From an uncultured Thermoleophilia bacterium (GTDB taxonomy: Bacteria > Actinomycetota > Thermoleophilia > UBA2241): a DNA stretch of 64,000 bases. Position 1 is the stretch's first letter, and the number at the start of each line of letters is the position of its first letter. The notes under the pieces are model-generated. The model ran no database searches. It saw only the letters and a program-made list of their open reading frames with translations, and had not been told where the DNA came from. Both the position numbers and the translations under genes were made by a program. Shown here piece after piece: positions 9,571 to 30,346 of the stretch. The stretch is taken from NCBI GenBank assembly GCA_963736645.1, contig CAVTPJ010000002.1, forward strand, positions 2,879-66,878, written 5' to 3'.

Positions 9571-9700
9571 CGCAGGGTACCTCCGCCGGTCATGCGGATT
9601 CGTCGAGCGCCGCATGATACCACTGCCGGCGGCGGACGTCGCCGTCGCGGCCGGGTGATATCATCCTCGGCTTGACCGGACTGTCGTGATCGGGGTGCCC

Positions 9701-13234: not shown

Positions 13235-14419
13235 CTAGACCTTCACGCTGAAGTACCGCCACGCGGACGCCTTGCGCGGATGCAGCTGGTCGGCGAGATG
13301 GATGGCGCGGACCCGCCAGCGCATGCTGCCGCTGCCGTAGCCGTAGAAGCTGTAGGAGACCTTGTAGCGCGTGTAGCCGCTGTAGTTCCTGTTGACGGGA
13401 CGCATGGTGCCGGCGGCGCGCCACCGGCCACCCGAGTACTTCTGCCACTCCACCTTGACCGTCTGGTCGCCGGCGTAGTGGAGCGGCCGGAGGGTGCCGT
13501 AGGAGGTGTACCTGCGTCCCGAGACCGCCCTCAGAGGCACCGCCGGCGGGGTGATGCGCACCGCGGTGGTGGACGGCGACTGGACGTTGGCGGCAAGCGT
13601 GTACGCACCGTTGCTCACGTCGGTACCGTCGGACCAGACGTTGATGTAGTAGGTCCCTCCCGCCCCGGTGGGGACGATGTACTTGAAGCTCTCGGTGCCG
13701 CTGTAGTGCATGGAACGGATCAGCGAGTCGTAGGGGTCTGAGAAGTCCGTGGTGCCGCGCGCCCAGAGGCAGAGGTCGAAGTCCTCCGAGCCGGGCGGGT
13801 ACATGGAGACGATGAGCTGTTGGCGGGCCGCCAGGTCGATCCGCCACAGGTCGTTGTACGCCGGCTCCGTCAGGGCGTCGGCGAACTTCATGGCCGGTAG
13901 GGGCAGGGCGTCGGCGCCAGGCTGCTGCACCGCGGCGGTGAGCCGGTAGCTGGCGTCGGTCGGCGTGTCGAAGGACCAGACGTCGATGTAGTAGGTCCCA
14001 GACGCGCCGTCGGGGACCAGGTACCTGATGCTCTCCGCGCCGCTGAAGTGCCACGAGATGGCGACGGCATTGCTGTGGTACGAGAAATCAGTGGTGCCGG
14101 GAGCCCAGAGGCAGAGGTCGAAATCCTCGCTCGCCGGCGGGTACATGGTGACGACGATCTCCTGGCCGGCGGCTGCCTGCACGGTCCACAGGTCCTCGTA
14201 CTCCGTCGCCGCGAGTGCGTCGGTGAAGTCCGGACCCGGCAGCGGCAGCGCATCGCCCGCGGTGACGCTCAGCGGCCCGGGCAGGTCGGCACGCGCCGCG
14301 TCCTCAGCGCCCTTGGCGGCCGGCGGCCCGGTCCCCGATGCCGCCAGTGCCGTGCTCACCGGCAGGAACAGGGCGCACAACGCGCACACAAGGATGAATG
14401 CGACTGGCGGCTTTCTCAT
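13235..14419 (-). CDS. Secreted protein with two tandem pre-peptidase C-terminal (PPC)-like domains and a C-terminal Ig-like module
   Basis: ATG at 14419, signal peptide MRKPPVAFILVCALCALFLPVSTALA. Two similar ~110-aa units carry ...DLW.....A.Q..VV.MYPP.SEDFDLCLWA.GTTDFS...GTYYI.VWS.. (PPC-like D-x-D-L-x-L signature). Confidence 0.75.
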   Translation of the reverse strand: MRKPPVAFILVCALCALFLPVSTALAASGTGPPAAKGAEDAARADLPGPLSVTAGDALPLPGPDFTDALAATEYEDLWTVQAAAGQEIVVTMYPPASEDFDLCLWAPGTTDFSYHSNAVAISWHFSGAESIRYLVPDGASGTYYIDVWSFDTPTDASYRLTAAVQQPGADALPLPAMKFADALTEPAYNDLWRIDLAARQQLIVSMYPPGSEDFDLCLWARGTTDFSDPYDSLIRSMHYSGTESFKYIVPTGAGGTYYINVWSDGTDVSNGAYTLAANVQSPSTTAVRITPPAVPLRAVSGRRYTSYGTLRPLHYAGDQTVKVEWQKYSGGRWRAAGTMRPVNRNYSGYTRYKVSYSFYGYGSGSMRWRVRAIHLADQLHPRKASAWRYFSVKV

Positions 14420-14780
14420 GGCCGGCCTCCCCCTCGGGTCCCCGACGGCTCGGAGAGCCGTCACTCGAGCAGCTCGCGCCGGCAGGCCGGCGGTGAGCCA
14501 GCTCACTCGGAGTGTACTGCCGCGGCCCGACGTTGTCCGTTGAACGTAGCCAGCCTGGGCAACGGTCTGCAGGGGAACGCCTACGGCAACCGTCTCGAGG
14601 CGCCGGCGATAGCCGACCACATCATGCAGAACGACCTGCTGTAGTGGAGGGCACTCAGGAGTATCATCATCGCTGTCACGGCAGGCGATCATGGTACCGC
14701 CGCGCGGGGGCCGGTCGAACAGCGCACCGGTCGCGGGCCTGACGCCCTCGCGCACCGAGCGGTACGGGAGGGGGGAGATC

Positions 14781-15287
14781 GTGAAGCGCCAGCCAGGCGG
14801 CAAGCAGTGGAAGAGGATCAAGTTCCGCGGCAAGTGGGCATGGCGCAAGCTCGTCGTGCAGCTCGCCGATCCTCACGACCGTCCGGCGCTCTTACGCAGG
14901 CAGGGCGCCACCATAGGCGAAGGCTGCTACATCATCACCAAGTACCTCGGTACCGAGCCACAGCTCGTGACGATCGGCGACCGCTGCCTGATCGCCGGGG
15001 GAGTGCTCTTCTTCACTCATGATGCAGCCACGTGGTCGTGTGGCATCCCCACCGTGTTCGGCGATATCGTCATCGGTAGCGACGTTTTCATCGGCGCCAA
15101 CGTCGTGCTGCTCCCCAGAACTCGAATCGGTGACAACGCCATCGTCGGAGCTGGGGCCGTGGTGAGCGGAGAGGTGCCGGCGGGCACGGTCTACGCCGGC
15201 AACCCCGCGAGGCAGATCTGCACTGTCGAAGAGTATCGCGACAAGCAGATGCGAAGACGGCAGGCACAGGGGCACGGCGGGCCCTGA
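14781..15287 (+). CDS. Hexapeptide-repeat O-acetyltransferase (maltose/galactoside acetyltransferase-like)
   Basis: GTG at 14781 preceded by gggaggggggag. VTIGDRCLIAGGVLFFTHD...VIGSDVFIGANVVLLPRTRIGDNAIVGAGAVVSGEVPAGTVYAGNPARQI. Confidence 0.8.
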   Translation: MKRQPGGKQWKRIKFRGKWAWRKLVVQLADPHDRPALLRRQGATIGEGCYIITKYLGTEPQLVTIGDRCLIAGGVLFFTHDAATWSCGIPTVFGDIVIGSDVFIGANVVLLPRTRIGDNAIVGAGAVVSGEVPAGTVYAGNPARQICTVEEYRDKQMRRRQAQGHGGP

Positions 15288-15301
15288 GACGACGTGCTAG
15301 C

Positions 15302-15335
15302 GCGAGCGGGCGGGGCGATCGCCCCACCCGCTCGC
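15302..15335. terminator. Strong GC hairpin between convergent genes (putative bidirectional terminator)
   Basis: gcgagcggg (15302-15310) pairs with cccgctcgc (15327-15335). They enclose the palindrome ggggcgatcgcccc. The hairpin lies between the stops at 15287 (+) and 15356 (-). Confidence 0.6.
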
Positions 15336-15355
15336 GATCCTTCCGGGGGCGTCGA

Positions 15356-15868
15356 TCAGTTCGGCGTGATCTGGATCCACTTCGCCCAGCCACGGGCGAA
15401 GCTGTAGGCGGCCATGGTCGCATCGCCGCAGCAGGAGCACGGATGCGTGGCCCAAGCAGTCTCCTCGAAGCAGATGCACGGGTTCACGACGACCGCGTGG
15501 GCTGCGATCACGAGCGGCGCCGCACCTTGCGCATGACAGTCGATCGTGAAGGTCGTGGCGTTAGTCCACGGATAGCTCTTCAGCGGGAACTTGCCCGGGG
15601 CTGCCGCACCGGCAGGGTTCACCGGGATGCCCTCGGCGCTGTGCGCGACCGCGAGGTGCACTTCCTTGAGCTTGTAACCCGCTTTGAGGTCGTATGTGAT
15701 GGTCAGCGTCGGCGCCGACGTGTCGTGCGTGATCCACAGGTCGCCGACGTACATGTTCTGTCCCGCGTACAGACCGACTCTGCAGACGGTCTCGGTGGCG
15801 AGCGCCGGCGCGGCAAACAGGCCGATCGCCACCATCGTCACGATCACCAGGAACAGGATGCGCTTCAT
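15356..15868 (-). CDS. Secreted hypothetical protein with a Cys-rich C-terminal part
   Basis: Signal peptide MKRILFLVIVTMVAIGLFAAPALA. C-terminal ...NPCICFEETAWATHPCSCCGDATMAAYSFARGWAKWIQI. No family name recognised with confidence. Confidence 0.6.
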   Translation of the reverse strand: MKRILFLVIVTMVAIGLFAAPALATETVCRVGLYAGQNMYVGDLWITHDTSAPTLTITYDLKAGYKLKEVHLAVAHSAEGIPVNPAGAAAPGKFPLKSYPWTNATTFTIDCHAQGAAPLVIAAHAVVVNPCICFEETAWATHPCSCCGDATMAAYSFARGWAKWIQITPN

Positions 15869-16123
15869 GAGGTACCCCCAATCGTCATGTGAAGTGCGCT
15901 GCGCCGTCTGTCCGGGGCACGGGTCTGATGCGCTCAGCCGAGCCGTCGCCGGCTGCGATGATGCCTCGTCAGCACCCCCCCTCTCTGCTCAGATCGGAAG
16001 CCCGGCCCGCACCCTGCGTCCCGACATGCGCAGGCCCATGGTCGCCCATGGCGCGTCCTGGGTAAAGGCGTTGCCGTTGTCTCGCGTGGCTATGCTGCGG
16101 GAAACGCGGAAGGATGCCTGCGG

Positions 16124-16360
16124 TCAGATGGAATGCACCGTCGTCATCACGGTCGGGCATGGCGACAGAGGCGCCCTGGTCTCTGCGGCTCGCCTGGTGG
16201 ACGAGGCCCGGCAGTAGAGTTCGGTGGCCGCTCTCTGGGCGTCGAAGCGAAGGCCACACTCGTGAAGAGGGTCGCATTCGGCGGGCGCGACGATGGAGAG
16301 CACGATGGACAGGAGTTCCTCGCTCGTCAACTCCTCGATCTCGGGGAAGTGATCCATCAT
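16124..16360 (-). CDS. Candidate small ORF (78 aa), possible substrate peptide or accessory protein of the upstream ligase operon. Speculative.
   Basis: ATG-ATG at 16360 preceded by aaggggtggag, 63 nt after the AsnB-like stop. Sequence: MMDHFPEIEELTSEELLSIVLSIVAPAECDPLHECGLRFDAQRAATELYCRASSTRRAAETRAPLSPCPTVMTTVHSI. Third-position GC is high in the first half and weaker in the second. Confidence 0.35.
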   Translation of the reverse strand: MMDHFPEIEELTSEELLSIVLSIVAPAECDPLHECGLRFDAQRAATELYCRASSTRRAAETRAPLSPCPTVMTTVHSI

Positions 16361-16422
16361 CGGCTCCACCCCTTTCGCGCAATCCAGCGATACCGTCATG
16401 CCACATCGCAAGGATTCGCCGT

Positions 16423-17883
16423 TCAACGGTGCTTACCTCGTTGAGCAGGGGAATCTGCCGTCTGCCCGCGTCTGACCCGATCGCGCCGTCGCAGGAGTGA
16501 CTCGATCGGCTTCAGCGTAAGGTACGCATTGTAGGCGAGCGGGCGCTGCTGCCGTACCCCCGTCCACTCGAGCGCCTTCACGGCGCGCCGGAACGGGTGC
16601 ACATCGGCCAGCCTCCACATCACCTCGGAAGGGAGCCCGAGGCGGCCGACGTTGCGGTTGATCCAGCGCACGTAGTCCGGCCGGACGACCTCGCTGAGCA
16701 AGGCCTCGTCGAGCGGCCTCAGCGGCACCCGGCGCATCGCGCGCAGGTTCAGGGTGTTGCGGTGGTCAGCCGCTGGGGGATGGGACTCGAGATCGACGCC
16801 CTGGCGGGCGAAGAACTCGCGCTGCCAACGGCGGTCCCGGCGAAGCTCCGCCGGCAGCGTGAGCATGCGCATCGCCAGCTCGATATCCAGAAACGGCCCC
16901 TTCGGCTGCAGGCCGAGCGAGGCCGGCACGGACAGCAGATACGACAGCAGCACCATGCGTAGGCGCGTCACCGTGAACACCCGTGGCAGCACCTCGGTCC
17001 GGAGGCGCGGTGTCGTCTCCAGCAGCCGCAGCATCCCCAGCTGCTCGCTGCTGAAGGCGCTGTACCGGGAGTCGGCGTTCATGGCGGGGTAGCGGAACAC
17101 CGCGTAGGCCTCGGCCGGCTCGCGCAGCGTCGCGATGCTCCGAACGACTCTGTCGACGCCCGCGAACCGCTCCCCGCAAGCGCCGGAAAGCAGGAGGCGG
17201 GCCGCCGGGATCCGTTCGCGGATCTGGCGGTAGAACTCGATCTGGTACATGCCATGCGCGTGCGTCGACGGGCCAAACAGGGCGTCCCACTCGTCGAAGT
17301 AGGTGTGGAAGGAGCCGATGGGGACGAGGTCCCACCGCACGCGCAGCCGCCGCGCGAGCTCGGCTGCCTTCACCGCCTCGACCGAGCGGGCGGGATCGTC
17401 GCTCACCCCGAAGGTGACCGCGCGAACGCGCTTCTTGTCGGTCAGCAGCACGTTGATGAGCCGGGAATCGAAGCCGCCGCTCGTCGGCACGAGTATCTCT
17501 CCATCGCCGGCGGCGCAGTCGTTGATCTTGGCGCTGGCCACCTCGAGCACCTCGTCGACCGTGCTCCTTCGCTCCAGCCACTCCCAGGCCGGATCGTCGA
17601 GGTACTCCACGCGCAGCCCATCCGGGCCCGAGAGCAGGCGCGACGAGTAGCGAAGCATCCGCACGTCACGCACAGGTGTACGTTCGAAGACGCAGTAGCC
17701 GAAGTCGAGGTAGTCGTTGAAGCCCTCGGGGTCGAACTCGAGCTCGGGCAGGTCGATGACGGCGTTGATCGAGTGGCCGGCGCGGCCGGTCCGCACGTTG
17801 TAGAAGAAGGGGCGGCTCGCCAGCCAGTCGGACTCGTAGATCAGCTCCTCCGGCGCGACGGACGCATCCCGGCGCGCGCTCAA
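16423..17883 (-). CDS. Asparagine-synthetase-like PP-loop ATP pyrophosphatase lacking the N-terminal glutaminase domain
   Basis: GEILVPTSGGFDSRLINVLL is the SGGxDS PP-loop of the AsnB C-terminal domain. The only in-frame start near the expected N-terminus is a TTG at 17883, overlapping the upstream TGA (TTGA). No Cys2 Ntn-glutaminase region is present. Confidence 0.7.
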   Translation of the reverse strand: MSARRDASVAPEELIYESDWLASRPFFYNVRTGRAGHSINAVIDLPELEFDPEGFNDYLDFGYCVFERTPVRDVRMLRYSSRLLSGPDGLRVEYLDDPAWEWLERRSTVDEVLEVASAKINDCAAGDGEILVPTSGGFDSRLINVLLTDKKRVRAVTFGVSDDPARSVEAVKAAELARRLRVRWDLVPIGSFHTYFDEWDALFGPSTHAHGMYQIEFYRQIRERIPAARLLLSGACGERFAGVDRVVRSIATLREPAEAYAVFRYPAMNADSRYSAFSSEQLGMLRLLETTPRLRTEVLPRVFTVTRLRMVLLSYLLSVPASLGLQPKGPFLDIELAMRMLTLPAELRRDRRWQREFFARQGVDLESHPPAADHRNTLNLRAMRRVPLRPLDEALLSEVVRPDYVRWINRNVGRLGLPSEVMWRLADVHPFRRAVKALEWTGVRQQRPLAYNAYLTLKPIESLLRRRDRVRRGQTADSPAQRGKHR

Positions 17884-19268
17884 GTGGGGCTGCGCTCGTC
17901 GGCGAGTTGCCGCTGCATCCACGCCTCGAGGTCCATCTCGAGGGTGGTCCACTCCTGCACGTCCGGATCGCCGAACTCGTGGACCTTGGGTTCGGTGCCG
18001 ATCTGGCGGTAGGCGAAGTGCTTCTTGTACCAGGCGATGGCGACGGGGCGGTCGGCGTTCGTCACCACGGTCTGTGCGCCCAACGAGGCCATGGCGCGCA
18101 GGCGCGCGCTCTGCAGCCGCATGCCCAGACCGTACCGGCGGTAGGCTGGGTCCACCGCCATCAAGGTGGTCTTGCCCTCCGTCTCCGAGAGCATCTTGTA
18201 GCCCGACATCCCGACGACGCGCTGGCCGGCCCGAGCCACGAAGCAGCAGCGCCAGTCGAGCTCGGGCATCTCCTCTGAGGGGATGCGGTGCATGTTCGCG
18301 GTCTCGAGCACCCTGAGCATGCCCTCCATATCGTCCGCCCTCGCCTGCTCGACGCGCACCTCGTCCGCACCGGCGGCGCACGGAGGCAGTCCAAGCGCGA
18401 CCCGCGCCGCGTCGGCGTTGGCGACCGGCCGGCCGGCCTCCTCGGCGATGCGGACCAGCCGGCGTACCAGCTGTTCGTTCCTGGCGAGCCGCGTGCGCTC
18501 GTAGTCGTAGAACACGTTGTCCTCGATGCCCGTCCGCACGTGCCCCCCCATGGCAATGCTCAATATGTTGATCGGGACCTGGAACCGGCCGAGTCCCGTC
18601 CCAGACCAGAGCGACCGGCGCGGGAGGTCGGCGACCGCGGCGCTCAGGTTGAGCGCCGTGGCGGGCGCGGTATGCGCCGCCCCGAGCAGGATGTTGAAAT
18701 AGTAGGGCGGTTGTACCAGTCCCTTCGCGATGAGGAGCTTGGCCGTGCTGATCATCCCCAGCTCGAGGATCTCGAGCTCCGGCTTGATGCCGCGTGCGAG
18801 CATCCGCTCGGCGAGCGCCCCGATGATCTCGGGGGTGTTGACCGACGGGCCGTCGTTGAAGTTCAGCGAGCCGGTCGTGAGGCTGGCCAGGTCCGGCTTG
18901 GCGTCGCCGTCGAGCTCGAGGACCGCCCCCCTCTGCTCGAGCTCGCCGTAGCGCCGCCCACTGGTCGTCGCACTGACGATCAGCTGCGGCCGCTCCCTGC
19001 GGATGCCGCTGATGATCTCGGCGAAGACGTCGGCCTCGTAGGTCGGCCGTCCATCGCGATCACGAGCGTGGACGTGGACCACCGACGCGCCGGCGTCGTG
19101 GCAGCGGACGGCATCCGCCACGATCTCCTCCGGGCTCAGTGGCGCGAACGGAGTGACGTCACGTGTCGGGAGCACGCCGGTGAGGGCCACATTGATGATG
19201 AGCGGGGAGTAGGCCTGCAGGGGATGCGGAAAGTCGACGTCGTCTCGACCCGTCTGTGGTCGCTCCAT
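17880..19268 (-). CDS. Fusion protein: BKACE (3-keto-5-aminohexanoate cleavage enzyme family, DUF849) domain + C-terminal GNAT acetyltransferase domain
   Basis: N-terminal ~300 aa: IINVALTGVLPTR...SPEEIVADAVRCHDAGASVVHVHARDRDGRPT...KPELEILELGMI...MGGHVRTGIEDNVFY...LARNEQLVRRLVRIAEEAGRPVA (TIM-barrel BKACE with HxH and E metal ligands). C-terminal ~150 aa: VVGMSGYKML...LMAVDPAYRRYGLGMRLQSARL (GNAT motif A). ATG preceded by gggagggg. Confidence 0.85.
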   Translation of the reverse strand: MERPQTGRDDVDFPHPLQAYSPLIINVALTGVLPTRDVTPFAPLSPEEIVADAVRCHDAGASVVHVHARDRDGRPTYEADVFAEIISGIRRERPQLIVSATTSGRRYGELEQRGAVLELDGDAKPDLASLTTGSLNFNDGPSVNTPEIIGALAERMLARGIKPELEILELGMISTAKLLIAKGLVQPPYYFNILLGAAHTAPATALNLSAAVADLPRRSLWSGTGLGRFQVPINILSIAMGGHVRTGIEDNVFYDYERTRLARNEQLVRRLVRIAEEAGRPVANADAARVALGLPPCAAGADEVRVEQARADDMEGMLRVLETANMHRIPSEEMPELDWRCCFVARAGQRVVGMSGYKMLSETEGKTTLMAVDPAYRRYGLGMRLQSARLRAMASLGAQTVVTNADRPVAIAWYKKHFAYRQIGTEPKVHEFGDPDVQEWTTLEMDLEAWMQRQLADERSPT

Positions 19269-19391
19269 GAGCCCCTCCCATCCACCCTCGTCCGGCGCGA
19301 TGATACCAGCCGGGCGTCCGTCATCCCTTGCTCCCGGTCGTCGCGCCTAGGAGTATCGGCGCTTCCGCACCCCTGCTCGAGACGCCGCCCT

Positions 19392-20621
19392 CTACCTGAA
19401 CGCTGTCAGCTTGTCGCGCAGGCGTCGCGCGACCAGGCGTGCGGCTCCGAAACGCAGTCTCAGGAGCACGGCCACGAAGGGGTACGCCGGCAACCGGGCG
19501 ATCACGACGTACGCCAGCTGCAGAGGGACCGTGTCCGGCCTCCAGCCGCGGACCCAGCCGGCGTCGCTCACCATGTCGACGCGCTGGACCCCGGGATCCT
19601 GGCAGCAGCGCTCCATGATCTTCTCCAGCAGCAACTGCCCCGGCGACACGTGGCCGAAGGTCTCGTCGTAGCCGATCTTCAGCGACGAGTAGGTAGCGCC
19701 GGTACGCGTGGAGAACACCGACGCGAGGCAGTGCCCCTGTGTGTAGAGAGACGTGATCTCGCAGTAGTCCTCGTCTCCACACATGTTTGTGGCCAGGTCG
19801 CGGAAGAAATCGGACCTGTCCTTGCTGCACCGGAGAGCGGTCACGGTCCCGCCGGCCCCCTTCCAGCCGGACGCCTCGACATCGAGGAAGGTCGCGAACT
19901 CGGAGTCCAGGTCGCCCTCCCTTGTGACCGTCACGAAATCAGCGTCACCCAGCCTGGCGAGCCTGTTGGACGCCGTATTGAGTGTGTGACGAAAGCTCTT
20001 GGGAAGCGAGGCGCGCAGCTCATCGAACGGCTTGCTGCAGTCCACGACATTGACGCTCTCTTTGGGTTCCACGTGGTACGTGCCTCTGCTCAGGCGTTGG
20101 AGACCACACCAGAGAGCCGAGTTCTGAGGCGCCGAGCCAACGATCAGAAGCCACCGTCCTTCCGGCCTGAGACGCAGGTGGCCGACCACGGCGGGGATGA
20201 GCGCTCGCCGCGCTTCGTCGTCAGGGCAGAGGACGTCGGCCTGGCGCCCATGGCTGTGCCAGAGGACCCCCCACACGCGGATGGGCAGTCCGAGCGCCCG
20301 GTCGGTCCTCGGCTGGAGCACGCAGATGGCCCGCACGCGCCGGCCGTCCGTCAGCGCCAGGCACCTGAGCTCGTCCGGCTCCCGCATGAGATGGTCGATG
20401 TGTGCCAGGCAGGCCTCGTACGCAAGAAAGCTCGTGCGTCGCGGGATCTGGGCGTAGAGGCGCCGCCAGTCGGCCTCGAGCAGCTGGAGTCCCGCCCGGC
20501 CGCGAGACTCGATGATCCCCCACTCGGCGTCCGGCACGGTGTCCCTCGGAGCCGTGGGACTTGGAGCGTCCTTCACGTCCTCGATTCGTCTCCTGCGTGG
20601 GTTCGGGCAACACTGCCGCAA
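19392..20621 (-). CDS. CelD/BcsL-like GNAT (Acetyltransf_6, FemABX-related double-GNAT fold) protein
   Basis: LQLLEADWRRLYAQIP.TSFLAYEACLAHI... in the N-terminal half. FLDVEASGWKGAGGT...FFRDLA...LKIGYDETFGHVSPGQLLLEKIM in the C-terminal half. The start is uncertain (TTG at 20621 or an internal GTG). Confidence 0.7.
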   Translation of the reverse strand: MRQCCPNPRRRRIEDVKDAPSPTAPRDTVPDAEWGIIESRGRAGLQLLEADWRRLYAQIPRRTSFLAYEACLAHIDHLMREPDELRCLALTDGRRVRAICVLQPRTDRALGLPIRVWGVLWHSHGRQADVLCPDDEARRALIPAVVGHLRLRPEGRWLLIVGSAPQNSALWCGLQRLSRGTYHVEPKESVNVVDCSKPFDELRASLPKSFRHTLNTASNRLARLGDADFVTVTREGDLDSEFATFLDVEASGWKGAGGTVTALRCSKDRSDFFRDLATNMCGDEDYCEITSLYTQGHCLASVFSTRTGATYSSLKIGYDETFGHVSPGQLLLEKIMERCCQDPGVQRVDMVSDAGWVRGWRPDTVPLQLAYVVIARLPAYPFVAVLLRLRFGAARLVARRLRDKLTAFR

Positions 20622-20631
20622 AGGTGTCCCC

Positions 20632-21858
20632 TCAGGCGCCTCGTTCGCGGAGCAGAGGGGGCAGCCGATTGCGGAGCGCCTGAACAGCGAACCTCGCCGC
20701 TTCGTGGACGCCTGGCGCAGGGTCTCTGAAGGATAACATCAGATCGAATTCGACTCTCCGCAGCGACAAGAGCCATTGAGCGGGGGAGATCCTTCGCTGG
20801 AGCATGTCCGCAACGCTGTCGGGGATGTCGCGTGATGCCCAGATGTAGCGAGGACCGTCGACCTGACGCGGCGCCGCGAGCGGTCGCCCGAGCACGTCCA
20901 GATAGGCGGCGATCGAGACGCTGACGCCGAGCGCGGAAGCGAAGCCGTGCCACATCTCAGGCCGGGGGTTGATCTCCATGAGCTTGAGCGACCCATCGCG
21001 CGGGTCGCGTTTGAACTCGACTCCTGCGACCCCGTGATACCCGATCTCCTGGAGAAGACGGAGGCCGCTGTCCGCGACCTCCTGTAACCACACGCTCTCG
21101 CCAAGGCTTGCGACCCCGAACCCACCTCGCGGATGCTCACGCAGTTTGCGCCGCGTGAACATGGCGAGCGGGAGGGAGTCGCGGTCCAGGTAGCAGAGCA
21201 GCGTGAACAGGTCGTCGTGGCCACCCGGCACGATCTCCTGCAGCAGCAAAGGCCCACAGCCATGGACGCGCTGATACTGACGGGCCAGCTCCTCCCTGCG
21301 AGGCACGTGGACCACCTTGCCGAAGTGACGCCTCCTTAGCGCGAGGTGCTCGCTTGACTTGAGCAAGGCGGGGAAAGGAACGAGTCGGGCGGCTTCGTCC
21401 AGGTCGGCCTCATCGTGGATGAAGGCGGTCTCAGGGACTCCCACCCCAGCCCTTCGAGCCGCCTCGACCTGCGCCTGCTTGGAGGCGACATGCTGCATGA
21501 CCGGCCAGGATGCAAAGGGCTGGAGGAAGTGCTGCTGGAGAAGGACAGCGTTGCGTGAACACGCGAACACGCAGTCGTCCTGGCAGGGGAACAGCACCGC
21601 CTTCTGCGGCAGCTTCTTCGCGATCGCCACGAGCGTTTCAGCAAAGGCAGCCTCGTCGTGGTGCGGATCGGGGCAGACGCCACGAGCCGGATAGCGTGAA
21701 GTGAACCCCGCGGCGCGACGGTCGGTGTCCAGCGCAAGCACCGGGATGCCTGAGCGAGCCAGATCGCGGATCACCCCCAGGCCCGTGGAGTTGTAGACGC
21801 CGATCACGATCGCTGGCGTCGTGGTGCGTGCTGCCTCAGCGAACTGTCCGAAACGCAT
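20632..21858 (-). CDS. ATP-grasp carboxylate-amine ligase (D-aspartate-ligase-like subgroup)
   Basis: ATG at 21858 preceded by gggagg. PAIVIGVYNSTGLGVIRDLARSGIPVLALD (pre-ATP-grasp Rossmann-like region). ...FPALLKSSE...LLLQEIVPGGHDDLFTLLCYLD...YHGVAGVEFKRDPRDGSLKLMEINPRP (ATP-grasp core). Confidence 0.8.
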   Translation of the reverse strand: MRFGQFAEAARTTTPAIVIGVYNSTGLGVIRDLARSGIPVLALDTDRRAAGFTSRYPARGVCPDPHHDEAAFAETLVAIAKKLPQKAVLFPCQDDCVFACSRNAVLLQQHFLQPFASWPVMQHVASKQAQVEAARRAGVGVPETAFIHDEADLDEAARLVPFPALLKSSEHLALRRRHFGKVVHVPRREELARQYQRVHGCGPLLLQEIVPGGHDDLFTLLCYLDRDSLPLAMFTRRKLREHPRGGFGVASLGESVWLQEVADSGLRLLQEIGYHGVAGVEFKRDPRDGSLKLMEINPRPEMWHGFASALGVSVSIAAYLDVLGRPLAAPRQVDGPRYIWASRDIPDSVADMLQRRISPAQWLLSLRRVEFDLMLSFRDPAPGVHEAARFAVQALRNRLPPLLRERGA

Positions 21859-21980
21859 GTGCGACCTCCCTCGCGGCAATCCTATGGCACATGCGGAGCC
21901 GAAACGCCCGGCGGGCGCTCGAGATCGCCGTTGTGTCGTCAGATTCGGAGACGGATGTTTGAGGCCTGCACGGCCACTCT

Positions 21981-22029
21981 GTGCCAGATTAGGCACGCTA
22001 CTGCAGGGTGCGCGCGCGGGTCCCTGCAG
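21981..22029. promoter_or_regulatory. Two palindromes in the divergent control region between the two ATP-grasp genes (candidate operators or 5'-UTR hairpin)
   Basis: gtgcc-agatta-ggcac at 21981-21996. ctgcaggg (22001-22008) and ccctgcag (22022-22029) flank 13 nt. Both lie within the 200-bp gap 21859-22058. Confidence 0.3.
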
Positions 22030-22058
22030 GGAAAAGTCATGAGAGGAGAGGGGGTCGG

Positions 22059-23207
22059 ATGCGAATCGCCAAGACTCGGCCCTATGCGAGGGCGTACAAC
22101 GCCGTGCGGTACCTCGTTCCCAAGTCGCCCCGGCCACGGCAGATCCACGACGATACATCGATCCTCGACGAGGCCCTGCCTCTCGTGCTCGATTGGCCCG
22201 ATGGTTGTCCGCGGCCCGTCGTGGCGATCATGCGCGACACCGGCATGATCCCCACCTGGACGAGGTATGCGCACTTCTTGCGCGCGAACGCCATCGGTCA
22301 CACGTTGTGCAACCTCCACCGCTCCGACTGGCAGGAGCAGCTCAGCGGTGCCGACCTCGTGCTCTGGCGACCCGCGTCGGCCCCGGCAGCCGTGGATGAG
22401 TGCCGGCGAAAAGTCTACGCGATCGAACGTCACCTCGACATGTTGGCCTTCCCGTCGATCGACGAGATCGCGCTGTACGAGGACAAGGCATTGCAGTGGG
22501 AACTGATGAGCCATCATGGTCTCCCGGCGGCCGATACCTTCCTCACGTACAGTCGCGAGGAGGCCGAAGAGGCCCTCGGACGCCTCGCGTATCCACTCAT
22601 CGCCAAGATCGTCACGGGGGCGTCTTCGCTGGGAGTGGAGCTCGTACGGTCTGAAGGGCAGGGGCGTCGCCTGATCAGGCAGGCGTTCTCGTACTGCGGC
22701 AGGCCTGCCTACTGGCCGGACGTGCGCCAGAAGGGCTACGTGCTCCTTCAGCGATACGTCCCCAATCCCGGCTTCGACCTTCGCGTCACGATCGCCGGAG
22801 ACGTCGCTCACGCTTTCTACCGGGGTGTCCCCAAAGGGGAGTTCCGCGCATCCGGAATGAGCGTGCTGGTCAGGGACGATCCTCCCGTTCAGGCGGTCCG
22901 CCTCGCGCAGACCGTCGCCGAGAGGCTGGGCTTCCCTGCTCTGGCCGTGGACATGGTGTACGACCTGGAGACTGACCAGTTCGTGGTCATCGAGATCACC
23001 ACGTTCCCGGGTGCGCACGCCCCGAACGGCATCCGAGCCAATCTGCCCGACGTCCTCTTTCAGGATGCAGGCGCCAGCGGTCTGAAGGTGATTCCCGGGC
23101 CCTACTGGATGGAGGAACTCGCCCTCAGGGCGGTGCTGATCGAGCGCTGGCTGCGGCCACGAGGGTTCGAGATCGCGTGGCCGGCGGAGGCGCCGCCGCG
23201 ATCGTGA
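22059..23207 (+). CDS. ATP-grasp ligase, RimK/glutathione-synthetase-like
   Basis: ATG at 22059 preceded by gagaggagaggggg. ALYEDKALQWELMSHHGLPAADTF...YPLIAKIVTGASSLGVELV...GYVLLQRYVPNPGFDLRVTIAGD...LAVDMVYDLETDQFVVIEITT. Confidence 0.75.
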   Translation: MRIAKTRPYARAYNAVRYLVPKSPRPRQIHDDTSILDEALPLVLDWPDGCPRPVVAIMRDTGMIPTWTRYAHFLRANAIGHTLCNLHRSDWQEQLSGADLVLWRPASAPAAVDECRRKVYAIERHLDMLAFPSIDEIALYEDKALQWELMSHHGLPAADTFLTYSREEAEEALGRLAYPLIAKIVTGASSLGVELVRSEGQGRRLIRQAFSYCGRPAYWPDVRQKGYVLLQRYVPNPGFDLRVTIAGDVAHAFYRGVPKGEFRASGMSVLVRDDPPVQAVRLAQTVAERLGFPALAVDMVYDLETDQFVVIEITTFPGAHAPNGIRANLPDVLFQDAGASGLKVIPGPYWMEELALRAVLIERWLRPRGFEIAWPAEAPPRS

Positions 23208-23922
23208 GGCGACGCGCAGACCACGGGACGAGCGGCGTGAGCGGCGCGCTCGAGGCGGTCCGTTCACGGATGGGACGATCGAACGAGCGACCCAGTGCCG
23301 GTCGGCCACGGGCGGCTGGGAGGCGTCAAGCCCCGAGCAGAGTCACTCGCCGCCATCCTGCCACGCACAGCTGCTCGCCTTTCCGCCGCTTCTCAGAGGA
23401 TGCCGGAGCATTCACCCGTTCGCCGCGCAGATCACCGGGCGCCTTCATCGGCGTGATCGCGTCGACCGTCGACAACCGCACGTTGCCGACCGTCAGCCCG
23501 CCTGGCCACTCGTCGAGGGGTTCATCCACCAGCCCTGCGACCCGCTATCACACCCGCACCACTCGTTGCCGGCGAGCGCTGGAGCGGCGCTGAACGCTAG
23601 CATCGTCACTGACGCTGACGCCGGTACGACAATCAGATCCTACTGGCGAATGACCATTCTCCCCCGGGTGCGCCGATCACCACGACCCGGCATGGCGCGC
23701 CTAGGCGCGCCAGATCTGGCGCCTTACATACCCTCCACGGGTGGGCCGTCCATCCGCGAGCGAGGGAGTCCATCTGCGTCTACGAGACCCATCGCCGCCC
23801 GGGTGAGGGAGGGCAGCTGGGAGGATCGGGGCAGAGAGCACAGAGCTTTGAGACGGCACGGTGCTTCGGCTCGGGACTGCTTCTGCGTCTTGGCGAGGTC
23901 GGTCAGGCTACCTGCTTTGGCA

Positions 23923-23992: not shown

Positions 23993-26354
23993 CTACCGGT
24001 AGATGTTGCCCGTGCGCGTGATCGTGACTCCCGCCGCGATCCCGTACAACGTCGCCTCCGTCCTGCCCGTCTCGAAGGTGTTGTTCGCGAACACGTTGCC
24101 GCTCGAGCCGGCGCGCACGCTGACGCGCGCGCCCTGGCCCCGAAGGGTGTTGCCGCGGATGGTGTTGTCCGGGGCGCCGTCGAGGTCGAAGAGCACGCCG
24201 TTGGAGGTCGCGCGGGTGTCGGTCACGGTGTTGTTCTCGATCAGGTTGCGCGCTCCGTAGAGGAGGAACACCTGCCCCCCGGTGTTGACCGTGAAGGTGT
24301 TGTCGCGGATGACCGTGCCGCTGCCGTTGGCGTTGACCACGTTGACGGCCGCGTGCGGGGTCGCGCCGCGCGTCATGTCGAAGGTGTTGCCGGTGACGGT
24401 GACCCAGCCCAGGGGGCGGGCGTCGTCACCTTGGCTGCCGTGGAAGTTGAGGGCGGAGCCGCGGCAGGCGTAGAAGGTGTTGTCCTTGACGACCATGCCC
24501 CGGGGGCCGTTGATCTCGAGGCCGTGCGGCCAGCTCATGCTCGGGTTGGCCCCGGCCCCCTTGATCACGCAGCCCTCGACGCGGGAGTAGCCGCTGACGA
24601 TGCCGAGCGTGCCGACGGGGACCGCATCGTAGGAGATCACCTGGCTGTCGCTGGGCTCGAAGACGCAGCGCAGGAAGCTGATGTTGCGGTAGCCCTTCCC
24701 GGTCGAGGACGTCGCCCGGTGCGTGATCTCCACGGTCATGCGCGTCGAGCCGAGGAAGTGGCAGTCCTCCCAGACGATGTCTTCGTAGTGTCTCACCGTA
24801 GCGCCGCCGCTGTACTCGCCCACGGTGACGGCATTGGCCACGGCGCCGCGTCCCGCGTCGATGACGCAGCCGCGGAAGGTGATGCGGCTGGCGCTGGAGT
24901 TGGTGAACGAGATGGCCGGAGGGCCACCGACGATCCGGCAGCGCAGGAGCAGCGCGTCGTGGGCTCCGTCGCTGAAGCGCAGCGAGGCGCCGGCGACGCC
25001 GAGCTTGAGGTCGGAGAGCGTGAGCGTGCTGCTCGGCGTGACCGCCCCGTGCAGCCAGGACCTGTCCATGCCCGCACCGGCGAGGCTGACACCCGCCGGG
25101 ATGGCGAGCGAGCTGACCCGGTAGTCGCCGGCGGGCACGAAGACGGTGCCGCCGCCCTTGGCGGCCACGGCGCTGAGCGCCGCCCGGATCGGCCGCCGTG
25201 TCGTCGCTGGTGCCGTCGCCCTTGGCGCCGTAGGCGGTGACGCTGGCGTCGTAGGGGCCTGAGGACGGACTCGGCGAGGGGGCGGGGGTGGGCGTCGGCG
25301 TCACGGACGGCTTCGGCGTCGGCGTGGGCGTCGGCGTCACGGTCGCCTTCGGCGTCGGCGTGGGCGTCACGGTCGCCTTCGGGGTCGGGGAGGGCGTCAC
25401 GGACGGCTTCGGGGTCGGCGTCGGCGTCGGCGTCACGGTCGCCTTCGGCGTCGGCGTGGGCGTCACGGTCGGCTTCGGCGTCGGCGTCACGGTCGCCTTC
25501 GGGGTCGGCGTCGGCGTCACGGTCGGCTTCGGCATTACGGTCGGGGTCGGCGTCGGCGTCACGGATGGCTTCGGCGTCGGCGTCACGGTCGCCTTCGGGG
25601 TCGGCGTCGGCATGCAGGTGGGCGTCGCGATGGGCGTCGGTGTGGGGGCCGGCGTGGCCGAGGGCGTGCAGGATGGCGTCGGGATCGCGTTTGGCGTTGG
25701 CATCTCAGTCGGCGAGAGCGTCGGCGTCGGTGTCGAGAGCGACCACGTTGGGGTAGCACTGGTTGGGGTAGCACTGGGCAGTGGGGCGGGCGTGGGGGTC
25801 GTCGCCTGGGCGGGAGCAGGCGTCACGATCGGCGTCGGTACAGGCGATGAAGTCGGCGTCACGATCGCAACAGAGGTAGCCCTCGGGGCGCGCCCTGGCT
25901 TCGCTGCGGAGCCCAGTGCGCGTATGAGGGTCCACGACGGCTCAGGGATGGAGATCCCTGCGGACAACTGCCTGTCGTGGTACTTTAGCACCGGTCGAAC
26001 GTAATACCCCTTAGCGCGGGTGAGCGCGATAACGACAGGCGCCGTCCCACGTTTCCAGTATTTCCCGGCAGTCTCGCTGGCCATCCGCACATCGCGTATG
26101 GTGAAGACATTGGTGGTCGCGCGAGCGACCGCGGCGTCTCTCATCCCCCGCACAGCCTTGCCGGGATCGGTGAGTCCGCAGGAGATCAACGCACCGGCGT
26201 GCCGGTAGTCACGTAGGTCCAAGCTGGCGGGGCCCAGGAGCGCGGAACTCCCAAGGCGGAAGCCCCAGCCGCTCGCACCGCCGACGGTGCTGGTGAGCAG
26301 GGCGACGCTGATGGCCAGACCGAGGAGCGCGGCCGGCAGAAGCTTTCGAAGCAT
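23993..26354 (-). pseudogene. Secreted right-handed beta-helix (pectate-lyase-3 fold) protein with an N-terminal unknown domain and a Pro/Thr linker. One frame break near 25190.
   Basis: ORF 24426-26354 gives a signal peptide (MLRKLLPAALLGLAISVALL), the PT linker, then ...YDASVTAYGAKGDGTSDDTAA before it goes out of frame. ORF 23993-25168 continues as (IRAALSAV)AAKGGGTVFVPAGDYRV... with many beta-helix turns. Removing one G in gcggccGatccgg restores DTAAIRAALSAVAAKGGG. Confidence 0.75.
25268..25800 (-). repeat. Imperfect tandem repeats (24-36 bp) encoding a Pro/Thr/Lys-rich linker
   Basis: The + strand shows reiterated ggcgtcacggtcgccttcggcgtcggcgtg-type units. These translate on the - strand as TPTPKATVTPTPKPSVTPTPTPTVMPKPTVTPTPTPKATV... 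Confidence 0.8.
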
Positions 26355-28753: not shown

Positions 28754-28829
28754 TGGTCGGTGGCCAGACTCGAACCCGCGACCCCTGGTCCCCCAGACGA
28801 GGGCGCCAACCCGGCTGCGCCACACGCCC
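28754..28829 (-). tRNA. Degenerate tRNA-Pro(GGG)-like sequence, probable pseudo-tRNA or recombination remnant
   Basis: RNA sense: GGGCGUG UG GCGC AGCCGGGUUG GCGC C CUCGU CUGGGGG ACCAG GGGUC GCGGG UUCGAGU CUGGC CACCGACCA. The D arm and anticodon loop are intact. The anticodon stem has a C-C mismatch, the T stem a G-G mismatch, and the 3' acceptor strand is 2 nt short and does not pair. Confidence 0.45.
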
Positions 28830-29130
28830 ACCGGACAGCGAGCATCGTAGCACGGGCATCACGCGTGTCTGTCTTGATTCCGTCTTCCGGCGGGGCGCTT
28901 CTGCGCCAGGGGAGCGTACGCGCTCGCGCTATCCGGGCCGCAGCTGAGGCCCGCCGCCCTCACGTTCAGCGGGCCTCTGCAATGGACGAGCCGCTCGGTC
29001 GGGTCGTCTTCTTGCTCGACCTCCTAGTTCACCGTCACCATGAGCGGCCCGGTCGTCCCCCAGTTGCCGGCCTGGTCGATTGCCCTCTGCTTGCCGCTCG
29101 TCTGCGAGGACGCCTCTCAGGGAGCGTCGG

Positions 29131-30214: not shown

Positions 30215-30292
30215 TGGTCGGCGTGGCCAGATTTGAACTGGCGACCCCTAGTCCCCCAGACTAGTGCGCTAACCAGGCTGCGCCACACGCCG
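30215..30292 (-). tRNA. tRNA-Pro (anticodon GGG)
   Basis: Perfect cloverleaf: CGGCGUG UG GCGC AGCCUGGUUA GCGC A CUAGU CUGGGGG ACUAG GGGUC GCCAG UUCAAAU CUGGC CACGCCG A CCA. CCA is encoded. 78 nt. Confidence 0.9.
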
Positions 30293-30346
30293 ACCGTACA
30301 GGCGGCATTTTAGCACAGGCGACGGAGGCCGCGTCGGAGCGTAGAC

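Follow-up and report, generated by a model that had tools for sequence, protein, structure and literature searches.

Several enzymes of described function invite comparison with the gene cassette analysed here. In the Campylobacter jejuni capsule enzyme Cj1438 the carboxylate of glucuronate is amidated by an ATP-grasp domain that forms one protein with a GT2 glycosyltransferase (PMC11800379), which provides a precedent for reading the cassette as a glycan-modifying one. FemX/FemAB, MprF and Sba18/Sbb17 attach amino acids to amine groups of cell-wall precursors, lipids or an amino sugar, while AsnB-type amidotransferases include those of polysaccharide loci (XrtA/PEP-CTERM, TIGR03108 class) and glutaminase-inactive relatives such as beta-lactam synthetase, carbapenam synthetase and TsnB9. 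N-acetylglutaminylglutamine amide (NAGGN), an N-acyl peptide amide, is made by an enzyme combining GNAT and ATP-grasp (Ngg) and an AsnB-type amidotransferase (AsnO) (PMC8070244).

The cassette lies at 16124-23207 of a 64-kb window, the whole stretch of DNA analysed, from an uncultured, high-GC bacterium, and consists of two ATP-grasp ligases, a tandem-GNAT protein of the CelD/FemX-like type, a fusion of BKACE and GNAT, a glutaminase-less AsnB-like enzyme and a 78-codon gene. The six ORFs were verified at the coordinates given in an earlier note, and domain matches and AF2 models agree with the enzyme classes proposed there; the six genes, with the domains they encode, are genuine, and the idea that the cassette holds several amide- or acyl-forming steps is correct. 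The note knew of no characterised pathway with such a gene combination, and no characterised orthologous cluster was found.

Gene arrangement and enzyme families

The minus-strand genes are tightly packed and carry ribosome-binding sites: GGGAGG stands 6 nt before the ATG at 21858, as had been claimed, and RBS-like stretches precede 19268, 16360 (thereby upholding the claim that the small ORF has its own RBS) and 22059. The only overlap is that of the BKACE-GNAT and AsnB-like genes, where the described joining of a TTG start to the preceding TGA is seen as TTGA at 17883-17880; this 4-nt overlap, also present in relatives L001 and L170, suggests that the two genes are translationally coupled. 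A scan of 15200-23900 yielded neither a sigma-70-like promoter nor an intrinsic terminator.

ATP-grasp1 (20632..21858, minus strand) gave weak matches to PF02222/PF02786 (ATP-grasp, CPSase_L_D2) and PRK12767. It stands alone, with no glycosyltransferase or capsule export genes beside it, whereas Cj1438C joins a TupA-like ATP-grasp to GT2, and relatives of ATP-grasp1 also match ATPgrasp_Ter. The family is large (729 representatives at E<=1e-30) and, in common with Cj1438, many of its members are fused to a glycosyltransferase (GT4): the best 150 of the 729 include 19 fusions, with partners such as polysaccharide deacetylase (four), GT4 (three), PF13480 (two), a DegT aminotransferase (one) and a formyltransferase (one). 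On this sequence evidence the family appears to be glycan-associated. The combination of ATP-grasp1 and a PF13480 GNAT, fused in some proteins, is also found as neighbours in other contigs; in L089 a 44% homologue of ATP-grasp1 and a PF13480 gene share a 4-nt overlap, that locus holding four PF13480 genes and an AsnB-like gene in the surroundings of MprF-like, PAP2 and polysaccharide-deacetylase genes.

The adjacent CelD/FemX-like tandem-GNAT gene had been placed at 19392-20621 (minus strand), although its start is probably the GTG at 20537, since the annotated product P0121 is 381 aa long and the nucleotide similarity shared with all paralogues sets in only at 20536-20540. With the gene at 19392..20537, the supposed 10-nt gap to ATP-grasp1 becomes one of about 94 nt. 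By sequence the protein falls in PF13480 (4.7e-22), the CelD/BcsL type, rather than with FemAB (PF02388), and PF13480 also contains the acyl-CoA-using effector BspF. Its AF2 model (pLDDT 89.5) adopts a predicted tandem-GNAT fold, for which the best Foldseek matches (E about 1e-10; target-normalised TM 0.55-0.71, full-length MprF entries excepted) are aminoacyl-tRNA-dependent transferases: Sba18/Sbb17 (deposited in the PDB as streptothrisamine complexes), FemX and the synthase domain of MprF. Sequence identity to these is just 9-15%. Paralogues form arrays of three to four copies in related contigs.

The BKACE-GNAT fusion (17880..19268, minus strand) matches PF05853 at 2.6e-84 (283 bits), PF00583 at 3e-9 and the Kce structure 2Y7D at 1e-52. 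As in Kce and other BKACEs, the PF05853 TIM barrel is full length and the Zn ligands and Glu/Asp/Arg catalytic residues are retained (H65, H67, E166, R245, E249, D250). In contrast to Kce, it carries a GNAT domain, lies below every NCBIfam BKACE equivalog cut-off (251 vs 382 bits for the Kce model) and has Leu168 at the position of Kce Tyr145, and because of this replacement canonical BKACE chemistry is not assured (PMC12871164). The canonical lysine-fermentation partners of Kce (kamA, kamDE, kdd) had been reported missing, and a check of gene content found none in the window. Over 1400 relatives were recovered, most of which bear the same GNAT subfamily as an N-terminal fusion while it is C-terminal in the clade represented here; a literature search found no paper mentioning BKACE together with GNAT.

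The AsnB-like gene (16423..17883, minus strand) encodes a predicted PP-loop adenylating amidoligase which, like AsnB-type enzymes, would adenylate a carboxylate and then form an amide. The PP-loop motif SGGFDS is present, the match to PF00733 is weak (22.9 bits, cut-off 21) and NCBIfam yielded just weak matches to TIGR01536 and TIGR03108, far below curated cut-offs (18 vs 817 bits for the latter). No PDB relative was detectable by sequence, even with the family profile, whereas the AF2 model (pLDDT 90) resembles TsnB9, beta-lactam synthetase, carbapenam synthetase (CarA) and AsnB in Foldseek comparison. Unlike AsnB-type amidotransferases it has a short N-domain (~110 aa) without an N-terminal Cys nucleophile, so the label 'glutaminase-less' is right. 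The protein belongs to a distinct, uncharacterised family, of which 229 relatives were found. Among 80 metagenome loci seeded on this family the recurrent same-strand neighbours were Wzt (26), PGA_cap (24), GT4 (19), two GT2-like groups (18 and 15), Wzm (16) and full-length AsnB (8), and gmd occurs there likewise; the usual setting is one of Wzm/Wzt transporter, glycosyltransferase and CapA-like genes, a context shared with the polysaccharide-locus amidotransferases. The family also accompanies PF13480 and ATP-grasp1 in L089, and PF13480 in L107.

ATP-grasp2 (22059..23207, plus strand), transcribed divergently from the other cassette genes, is a RimK/LysX-like carboxylate-amine ligase (TIGR00768 1.2e-11, LysX 1.9e-11, PF08443), with PDB sequence matches to LysX, ArgX and RimK at 2.7e-6 to 2e-4. 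In L004 a homologue (36%) sits immediately upstream of BKACE-GNAT and overlaps it by 4 nt, and in L100 another (40%) belongs to an AsnB-like/GT2/GT4/GT2/PGA_cap operon. The two palindromes noted in the 200-bp divergent intergenic region (21859..22058) do exist as short inverted repeats, CGCATGTGC/GCACATGCG and CTGCAGGG-N13-CCCTGCAG, but they do not exceed chance and carry no weight, since 16% of shuffles of this region give a perfect 8-nt inverted repeat; the region yielded no match to a sigma-70-like promoter.

A proposed role in glycan tailoring

With confidence that we would place about midway, we propose that the cassette is a lineage-specific mosaic, situated in an island, whose enzymes place amino acids or acyl groups on an envelope glycan. 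This reading is supported by the presence of all domains and catalytic motifs, by the tight packing of the minus-strand genes, by the AsnB-like loci, the ATP-grasp1 fusions, the ATP-grasp2 operon in L100 and the gene set of L089, and by the resemblance of the CelD-like model to aminoacyl-tRNA-dependent transferases. The earlier guess of an envelope-polymer target thereby gains independent comparative support from the AsnB-like neighbourhoods and the ATP-grasp1 fusions. It had been prompted by envelope glycan genes nearby, which are indeed present (gmd, 72-737; GT4, 7273-9615; NTP-transferase/PGM, 33691-36228) but lie outside the cassette, 7-16 kb away, with unrelated genes between. Against the glycan reading, no glycosyltransferase, Wzm/Wzt, flippase, polymerase or PGA_cap was found inside or beside the cassette, no Wzm, Wzt or PGA_cap occurs in the 64-kb window, and the BKACE-GNAT family loci share no consistent glycan context.

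As we infer its substrates, donor types and order of steps, the chemistry would begin with ATP-grasp1 converting a carboxylate to an acyl-phosphate and coupling it to an amine; one partner would be an amino acid and the other either a sugar carboxylate or a de-N-acetylated amino sugar. The FemX-like tandem GNAT would extend or acylate the new amine, probably from aminoacyl-tRNA and less probably from acyl-CoA, and ATP-grasp2 may add one more acidic amino acid. The AsnB-like enzyme would adenylate a leftover carboxylate to form an amide from free ammonia or an amine. The BKACE half may convert a beta-keto acid and acetyl-CoA to acetoacetate and a shortened acyl-CoA, from which the fused GNAT half would take the acyl group to cap an amine. 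The outcome would be a surface-glycan residue with an amino-acid or acyl decoration, with the backbone and export genes lying elsewhere in the genome. The cassette itself would have been put together from modules of two genes each, which move between envelope-polysaccharide loci. Since the six genes were never found together elsewhere, a single product is an assumption.

Patchwork origin and alternative explanations

The chromosomal island that surrounds the cassette is variable and spans positions from about 13.1 to 30.2 kb, with tRNA-Pro at its boundary. In L088, a syntenic relative with flanks of 87% nucleotide identity, synteny resumes at 30204-30809 on one side and about 13073 on the other, and the island holds just the CelD-like and small genes of the cassette. 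The island character is deduced from this variable content, from the tRNA-Pro(GGG) at its edge (30215..30292, minus strand; ARAGORN and Rfam) with a degenerate 98-nt copy (83%) at the border (28760-28857), and from the lower GC3 of the cassette (0.78-0.90 vs 0.91-0.97 in core genes). The notion of one unit of six genes was not borne out, as no other contig was seen to carry the complete block; only pairs recur, namely BKACE-GNAT with AsnB-like, ATP-grasp1 with a PF13480 GNAT, and an ATP-grasp2-like gene with BKACE-GNAT or with AsnB-like, so that co-conservation is partly lacking. The cassette is a patchwork of such smaller pairs, with no conserved pathway.

Such an origin would also suit two or more unrelated functions, joined by the island without a shared product, a tentative explanation that we regard as somewhat unlikely. 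In that case BKACE-GNAT and AsnB-like would work as a pair in the metabolism of a free beta-keto or amino acid, ATP-grasp1 and the CelD-like GNAT would form a separate, envelope-modifying pair, and ATP-grasp2 and the small gene would each be independent. The unconserved block accords with this, as do nucleotide similarity to relatives that ends at gene borders, gaps of 123 and ~94 nt resembling recombination seams, and GC3 that is unequal between modules (0.78-0.82 in the ATP-grasp genes vs 0.89-0.90 in BKACE-GNAT and AsnB-like). The two closest BKACE-GNAT genes (83% and 82%; L002 and L003) likewise have no other cassette family nearby, just ~1 kb of upstream sequence being visible in L002. 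Each family is, however, linked to at least one other cassette family in an independent contig (L089, L107, L004, L100), and the same-strand packing and RBSs are compatible with co-expression.

The neighbours of BKACE-GNAT bear on a further alternative, that the product is a soluble small molecule analogous to NAGGN, either the amide of an N-acylated di- or tri-peptide or some other metabolite derived from amino acids (such as a compatible solute, siderophore-like compound or antibiotic). The closest BKACE-GNAT genes occur alone, with an AsnB-like gene (adjoining in L001, L170, L090 and L117, weakly in L006) or with a RimK-like ligase, and the recurrent neighbours are carboxylate-activating ligases of free substrates: PaaK-like AMP-binding (six), cyanophycin-synthetase-like ATP-grasp (four) and IucA/IucC (one). 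A link to diamino-acid catabolism had been thought absent, yet L001 and L170, which have just the pair with AsnB-like, place it beside the ornithine-degradation cluster ord-ortA-ortB-oraSE. The three enzyme classes shared with NAGGN synthesis follow an identical logic (PMC8070244), and the lack of a glycosyltransferase or exporter would also fit. We nevertheless judge this explanation unlikely: unlike AsnO, the AsnB-like protein has no glutaminase domain and no match to TIGR03104 (the NAGGN amidotransferase), the cassette has additional FemX-like and BKACE components but no Ngg-type GNAT/ATP-grasp fusion, the adjacent genes include no regulator or transporter of the kind usual in metabolite clusters, and three of the five enzyme families show glycan-type contexts or fusions.

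The 78-codon ORF (16124..16360, minus strand) is a real gene, as its homologue in L088 shows, since that 77-aa ORF is 69% identical over 49 aa and the nucleotide differences fall mostly at third codon positions (synonymous-type). It matched nothing in Pfam, NCBIfam or PADLOC, has no assigned function and is probably outside the enzymatic unit. Conservation covers about 50 aa at the N-terminus and the last 25 or so are variable, as in a RiPP precursor with leader and tail, and two ATP-grasp enzymes and a GNAT make up the microviridin gene set. The ligases would then modify the 78-aa product as in graspetides/microviridins, the GNAT would act on it too, and its cyclisation or C-terminal amidation would fall to the AsnB-like enzyme. 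Enzymes of the AsnB-like kind do carry out lasso-peptide cyclisation and convert RiPP C-termini to amides or nitriles (PMC13060819), but RiPP-like maturation is very improbable, as the small gene persists in L088 without ATP-grasp or AsnB-like genes and in the opposite orientation relative to its CelD-like neighbour, did not turn up next to the AsnB-like gene in any of the 80 loci, nor at the loci of BKACE-GNAT, and is accompanied by neither a leader peptidase nor a lasso B-protein, RRE or ABC exporter, while the AsnB-like protein matches no lasso-cyclase model and its family typically resides in glycan loci.

Of all the components of the cassette, the family of BKACE-GNAT fusions, which is uncharacterised, is the most interesting.

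Conservation and genomic setting of the six genes

All six open reading frames were recovered where the earlier note had placed them, i.e. on the minus strand those for a first ATP-grasp protein (ATP-grasp1, 20632-21858), a CelD-like tandem GNAT (19392-20621), a fusion of a beta-keto acid cleavage enzyme with a GNAT (BKACE-GNAT, 17880-19268), an AsnB-like enzyme (16423-17883) and a small protein (16124-16360), and on the plus strand, diverging from these across a 200-bp intergenic region, that for a second ATP-grasp protein (ATP-grasp2, 22059-23207). The start of the CelD-like gene at 20621 was not sustained, a GTG at 20537 being most likely instead. Inspection of the sequence bore out the GGGAGG motif located 6 nt ahead of the ATG at 21858, the RBS-like stretches preceding 19268, 16360 and 22059, and the overlap between the BKACE-GNAT stop codon and the AsnB-like start codon (TTGA at 17883-17880). 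The 78-codon frame is likewise considered real, as a 77-aa homologue is present in a related contig with most differences being of the synonymous type. The two palindromes reported in the divergent region are present but do not exceed chance, and a role as operators was ruled out on that basis; scans for promoters and terminators returned no consensus promoter or terminator.

A total of 171 loci, comprising 80 seeded on BKACE-GNAT (GTDB representatives), 80 seeded on the AsnB-like protein (metagenomes) and 11 obtained by exact-protein look-up, were searched with the six cassette proteins; genes in these loci were called by simple ORF rules, and the related contigs are long-read metagenome assemblies that show frameshifts. 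The proposal that the six genes constitute one conserved unit was not upheld, as the full set occurs in none of the 171 loci, while pairs or triples recur. BKACE-GNAT was found alone in contigs L002 (83%, with only approximately 1 kb visible upstream) and L003 (82%), and coupled to the AsnB-like gene by the same 4-nt overlap as in the window in L001 (77%), L170 (78%) and L090 (83%); the two genes are also adjacent in L117 and, weakly, in L006. In L004 (67%) an ATP-grasp2-like gene overlaps the BKACE-GNAT start, and in L100 an ATP-grasp2 homologue and an AsnB-like gene share one operon. Contig L089 carries an ATP-grasp1-family gene and a PF13480 gene with a 4-nt overlap, in addition to three close CelD-like paralogues and a frameshifted AsnB-like gene, and is devoid of BKACE. 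Each family is thus connected with one or more of the other cassette families in an independent contig, in groupings of two or three only.

The window represents chromosomal core, containing recA, recX, rny, ftsK, rnj, miaA, dapF, hflX and proS. Contig L088 is 87% identical to it at the nucleotide level across the proS flank and is syntenic up to approximately 13073 on one side and from approximately 30204 on the other, the content between these points being different. In L088 this stretch harbours a CelD-like gene (71% at the amino acid level) and the small gene in opposite relative orientation, and ATP-grasp, BKACE-GNAT and AsnB-like genes are all absent from it. Third-position GC is 0.78-0.90 in the cassette and 0.91-0.97 in core genes, and varies between modules. 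The right border carries a tRNA-Pro(GGG) gene (30215-30292). A degenerate 98-nt copy with 83% identity, which is not recognised as a tRNA, is situated 1.46 kb further inward (28760-28857), and the two resemble the scar of integration at a tRNA. Based on the variable content in L088, the tRNA-Pro border and the GC3 differences, the cassette lies within a variable island and looks to have been assembled from parts.

A number of further features were observed in the window. A gene for a secreted PPC-domain protein (13235-14848, minus strand) is internally duplicated in tandem (the units, two in number, measure approximately 342 nt and are 79-82% identical) and is missing from L088, as are the genes for an LbH acyltransferase (14691-15287) and a 170-aa secreted protein (15356-15868). 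The stretch 23993-26354 (minus strand) encodes a secreted protein with a pectate-lyase-like beta-helix and an extended Pro/Thr-rich linker, in which a frameshift near 25170 yields two overlapping ORFs, reflecting either a pseudogene or an assembly error. At approximately 1500-4800 (plus strand), a long repeat protein with units such as 'TFTITPTAGANGSITP...YTFSNVT..HTISATF' is readable only by frame-hopping and displays unusual base skews (AT skew 0.24); the probable identity is a large surface protein whose sequence suffers from frameshifts or misassembly. Finally, an 845-aa apparent fusion of a sugar-1-phosphate nucleotidyltransferase, a left-handed beta-helix and a phosphoglucomutase/phosphomannomutase (33691-36228, plus strand) would combine two successive reactions of NDP-sugar synthesis in a single polypeptide.

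ATP-grasp, CelD-like and AsnB-like enzymes

The presence of two ATP-grasp proteins was corroborated. ATP-grasp2 is clearly RimK/LysX-like (TIGR00768 at 1.2e-11; LysX/RimK entries of the PDB at 1e-6 to 1e-4), while ATP-grasp1 is assigned through sub-threshold Pfam hits (20 and 19 bits), a match to PRK12767 at 1.9e-7 and the domains of its homologues, which bear CPSase_L_D2, ATPgrasp_Ter and ATP-grasp_3 at up to 1e-19. An exhaustive representative search identified 729 relatives of ATP-grasp1 at E<=1e-30, the best 150 of which include 19 multidomain proteins. The domains fused in these best 150 are polysaccharide deacetylase (four), GT4 (three), PF13480/FemAB (two) and DegT sugar aminotransferase, formyltransferase and methyltransferase (one each), as well as a second ATP-grasp. 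As Rosetta-stone evidence, the fusions to PF13480 indicate that ATP-grasp1 works together with the CelD-like enzyme, and the remaining fusions connect the family with sugar chemistry. A parallel is seen in Campylobacter Cj1438, a glycosyltransferase joined to an ATP-grasp domain responsible for amidating the glucuronate of the capsule (PMC11800379), in that glycosyltransferase-type fusions also occur among the relatives of ATP-grasp1.

The CelD-like protein scored 79 bits against PF13480 (cut-off 22), and structure prediction (AF2, pLDDT 89.5) substantiated its description as a tandem GNAT of the CelD/BcsL type. The model aligned over 336-433 columns to FemX, MprF and Sba18, the closest folds being those of Sba18/Sbb17 (streptothrisamine complexes), the MprF synthase domain and FemX, which are aminoacyl-tRNA-dependent transferases; this resemblance makes the enzyme a candidate for the use of an aminoacyl-tRNA donor. 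Arrays of two to four CelD-like PF13480 paralogues per contig were observed in relatives (e.g. 6040-12607 of L089), which suggests that the family is diversifying by tandem duplication. A literature search on PF13480 retrieved only a Brucella effector paper.

The AsnB-like protein contains the PP-loop SGGFDS, of which G136 is at least 90% conserved, S140 nearly invariant and the remaining positions invariant in the family. The earlier note's assignment to the AsnB type is supported by an AsnB-type synthetase domain in the predicted structure, while the Pfam/NCBIfam match is weak (PF00733 at 22.9 bits versus a cut-off of 21; TIGR01536 at 22.7 bits versus 267). Sequence and profile searches of the family against the PDB returned nothing meaningful, its relatives surfacing by fold search only, in which the model (pLDDT 90) matched TsnB9, beta-lactam synthetase, carbapenam synthetase (CarA) and AsnB with Foldseek E values of 1e-10 to 1e-7. 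The predicted structure and the family alignment agree with the enzyme being glutaminase-less, with approximately 110 residues ahead of the synthetase domain and no N-terminal Cys nucleophile; the conserved N-terminus reads ESDWLASRP.

Among the same-strand neighbours in the 80 metagenome loci seeded on the AsnB-like family, a Wzt-type ABC ATPase with a Wzt_C domain occurs in 26 and a Wzm ABC-2 permease in 16, together with GT4 (19), GT2-like (18 and 15), DUF362 (12) and full-length glutamine-dependent AsnB (8) proteins; gmd is likewise present. From this gene content, these neighbourhoods are identifiable as ABC-transporter-dependent polysaccharide loci. A PGA_cap gene, encoding a CapA-like metallophosphatase fold, lies immediately upstream in 24 of the 80 (8739-9995 of L114 and 23 others). 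The pairing of an AsnB-like cyclase with a PGA_cap-type epimerase, MslH, is known in a lasso-peptide cluster; unlike that cluster, the 24 pairs are surrounded by glycosyltransferases. A 467-aa gene upstream of many AsnB-like genes was ruled out as a paralogue (hhalign probability 0.2).

The BKACE-GNAT fusion

The fusion described in the earlier note was confirmed by Pfam/NCBIfam. Its BKACE half covers positions 1-274 of the 274 in the PF05853 (DUF849) profile, and is hence a full-length domain (283.3 bits, cut-off 24.8; PDB entry 2Y7D at 1e-52), and its C-terminal GNAT half matches PF00583 (37.5 bits, cut-off 20.7) and PF13508 (34.7 bits), with RRYGLG satisfying the acyl-CoA-binding motif R/Q-x-x-G-x-G/A, retained in relatives as G-x-G-I/L-G. 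Alignment with the 3-keto-5-aminohexanoate cleavage enzyme (Kce) places the zinc ligands His46, His48 and Glu230 at H65, H67 and E249, and the catalytic residues Glu143, Asp231 and Arg226 at E166, D250 and R245; all six are invariant across 16 fusion proteins. The fusion scores 251 bits against the Kce equivalog NF052387, under the cut-off of 382 for a Kce orthologue, and falls under the cut-off of every BKACE equivalog. The position of Kce Tyr145, a conserved Tyr implicated in canonical BKACE catalysis (PMC12871164), is occupied by Leu168 in the window's protein and by Phe in GNAT-BKACE forms. In BsfD, a Tyr-to-Phe change has been proposed as possibly important for non-canonical chemistry (PMC12871164). 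Since Phe also occurs at this position in some uncharacterised DUF849 proteins of the PDB, the replacement is a flag for possibly altered chemistry and not a conclusion.

The family is large, 1416 of the scored candidates being hits at E<=1e-5, and spans many phyla. A single GNAT subfamily occurs on either side of the BKACE domain, being N-terminal in most members (Chlorobi, Campylobacterota, Pseudomonadota and others) and C-terminal in the window's clade; GTDB representative genomes contained no close relative, the best matches (61-66%) being to Planctomycetota/Brocadiaceae MAGs. The neighbours of the fusion are variable but enriched for carboxylate-activating ligases, i.e. the AsnB-like enzyme, a PaaK-like AMP-binding enzyme in six loci, IucA/IucC in one locus and cyanophycin-synthetase-like ATP-grasp proteins beside GNAT-BKACE fusions in loci from Chlorobium, Sulfurimonas, Ectothiorhodospiraceae and a further metagenome contig (L014 11507-13468, L022 14944-17592, L023 11349-13109 and L087 5933-7930). 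One of these cyanophycin-synthetase-like proteins has the full ATP-grasp and Mur-ligase architecture. In L001 and L170, which are mutually syntenic and were therefore counted as a single observation, the BKACE-GNAT/AsnB-like pair is situated directly upstream of a complete cluster for oxidative ornithine degradation (ord, ortA, ortB, oraSE), encoding 2,4-diaminopentanoate dehydrogenase, OrtA, OrtB and D-ornithine aminomutase (L170 10001-19169; L001 10001-20705). As to the window itself, the reported absence of kamA, kamDE and kdd held, no aminomutase or dehydrogenase genes being present among its scanned ORFs, and a lysine- or ornithine-fermentation reading was rejected as homologues of Ord, OrtA, OrtB and OraSE were not found in it.

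The literature search found no paper mentioning BKACE together with GNAT, nor DUF849 with ATP-grasp. A speculative and on balance improbable reading is that BKACE-GNAT represents a novel type of bifunctional enzyme for N-acylation, partnered by a ligase and furnishing an unknown acyl cap. The BKACE half would convert a beta-keto acid and acetyl-CoA to an unusual acyl-CoA without ATP or, given the Tyr-to-Leu/Phe change and by analogy with BsfD, would perform non-canonical C-C chemistry, and the GNAT half would hand the acyl group straight to an amine made, or later extended, by an AsnB-like, ATP-grasp or AMP-binding partner.

A putative role in envelope glycan tailoring

The cassette encodes five intact enzymes of known catalytic classes, including one translationally coupled pair. 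Glycan-locus context or fusions to glycan enzymes mark three of these families (AsnB-like, ATP-grasp1 and, by way of L100, ATP-grasp2), the CelD-like enzyme is connected to the set by the PF13480 fusions, and the BKACE-GNAT family is without a glycan signal of its own. We give an even chance to the reading that the cassette enzymes modify a residue within an envelope glycan. ATP-grasp1 would join a carboxylate and an amine as an amide, from either a sugar acid and an amino acid or an amino acid and a de-N-acetylated amino sugar, upon which the FemX-like CelD-like GNAT may transfer an aminoacyl or acyl group onto a free amine and the RimK-like ATP-grasp2 may add a further acidic residue. The AsnB-like enzyme would then adenylate a remaining carboxylate and amidate it with ammonia or an amine, while the BKACE half would form acetoacetate and an acyl-CoA from a beta-keto acid and acetyl-CoA, the acyl group serving the GNAT half as an N-acyl cap. 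Counting against glycan tailoring, in addition to the missing glycan signal of BKACE-GNAT, the cassette and its direct surroundings contain no glycosyltransferase or exporter, and Wzm, Wzt and PGA_cap homologues were not found in the 64-kb window.

It is possible, at a lower level of likelihood, that two or more unrelated modules were joined by island shuffling. The block is not conserved, similarity ends at gene borders and GC3 differs, all of which speak for such shuffling; the web of pairwise links between families and the operon-like packing argue otherwise. Rather unlikely, by analogy with N-acetylglutaminylglutamine amide (NAGGN), is a product in the form of a soluble metabolite derived from amino acids, such as an N-acyl peptide amide. 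The enzyme logic of the NAGGN pathway (Ngg/AsnO) matches that of the cassette (PMC8070244) and BKACE-GNAT neighbourhoods favour free-substrate ligases, but the defining NAGGN proteins are all absent, with no Ngg-type GNAT/ATP-grasp fusion being observed and the AsnB-like protein having no TIGR03104 hit at E<=0.01. That the small gene encodes a RiPP precursor is very improbable: ribosomal peptides are indeed among the substrates of AsnB-like enzymes (PMC13060819), but L088 retains the small gene while having no ligase, no other searched locus showed it next to these enzyme families, and a lasso/graspetide test gave no hit to a lasso-cyclase model and no peptidase or exporter among the neighbours. 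An anti-phage defence system was rejected, as eight proteins gave no PADLOC hits.

The earlier note knew of no characterised pathway with this gene combination, and the literature search similarly turned up no cluster, orthologous or syntenic, that has been characterised. Taken as a whole, the cassette is a one-off mosaic, while its components match an established type of system, namely the tailoring of surface glycans by amidoligases, FemX-like transferases and AsnB-type enzymes. Many bacterial surface polysaccharides bear amides of amino acids and unusual N-acyl groups, and we know of no enzymes responsible for many of these modifications. Four uncharacterised enzyme families with clear partner relationships emerge from the locus and its relatives as candidates for such amide/N-acyl chemistry: (i) the glutaminase-less AsnB-like family embedded in Wzm/Wzt loci; (ii) the ATP-grasp family fused to GT4, deacetylase or aminotransferase domains; (iii) the PF13480 tandem GNATs; and (iv) the BKACE-GNAT fusion. 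The six-gene arrangement is a local mosaic of one uncultured lineage and of limited general importance; the most valuable leads are at the family level, being BKACE-GNAT, the AsnB-like enzymes of Wzm/Wzt loci and the partnership of ATP-grasp1 with PF13480. BKACE-GNAT is widespread, occurs in both domain orders and is absent from the literature searched; assignment of its reaction would widen the known scope of beta-keto acid cleavage enzymes. If its bifunctional reading is true, a surface glycan or peptide-like molecule of this genome would gain a previously unknown acyl cap.
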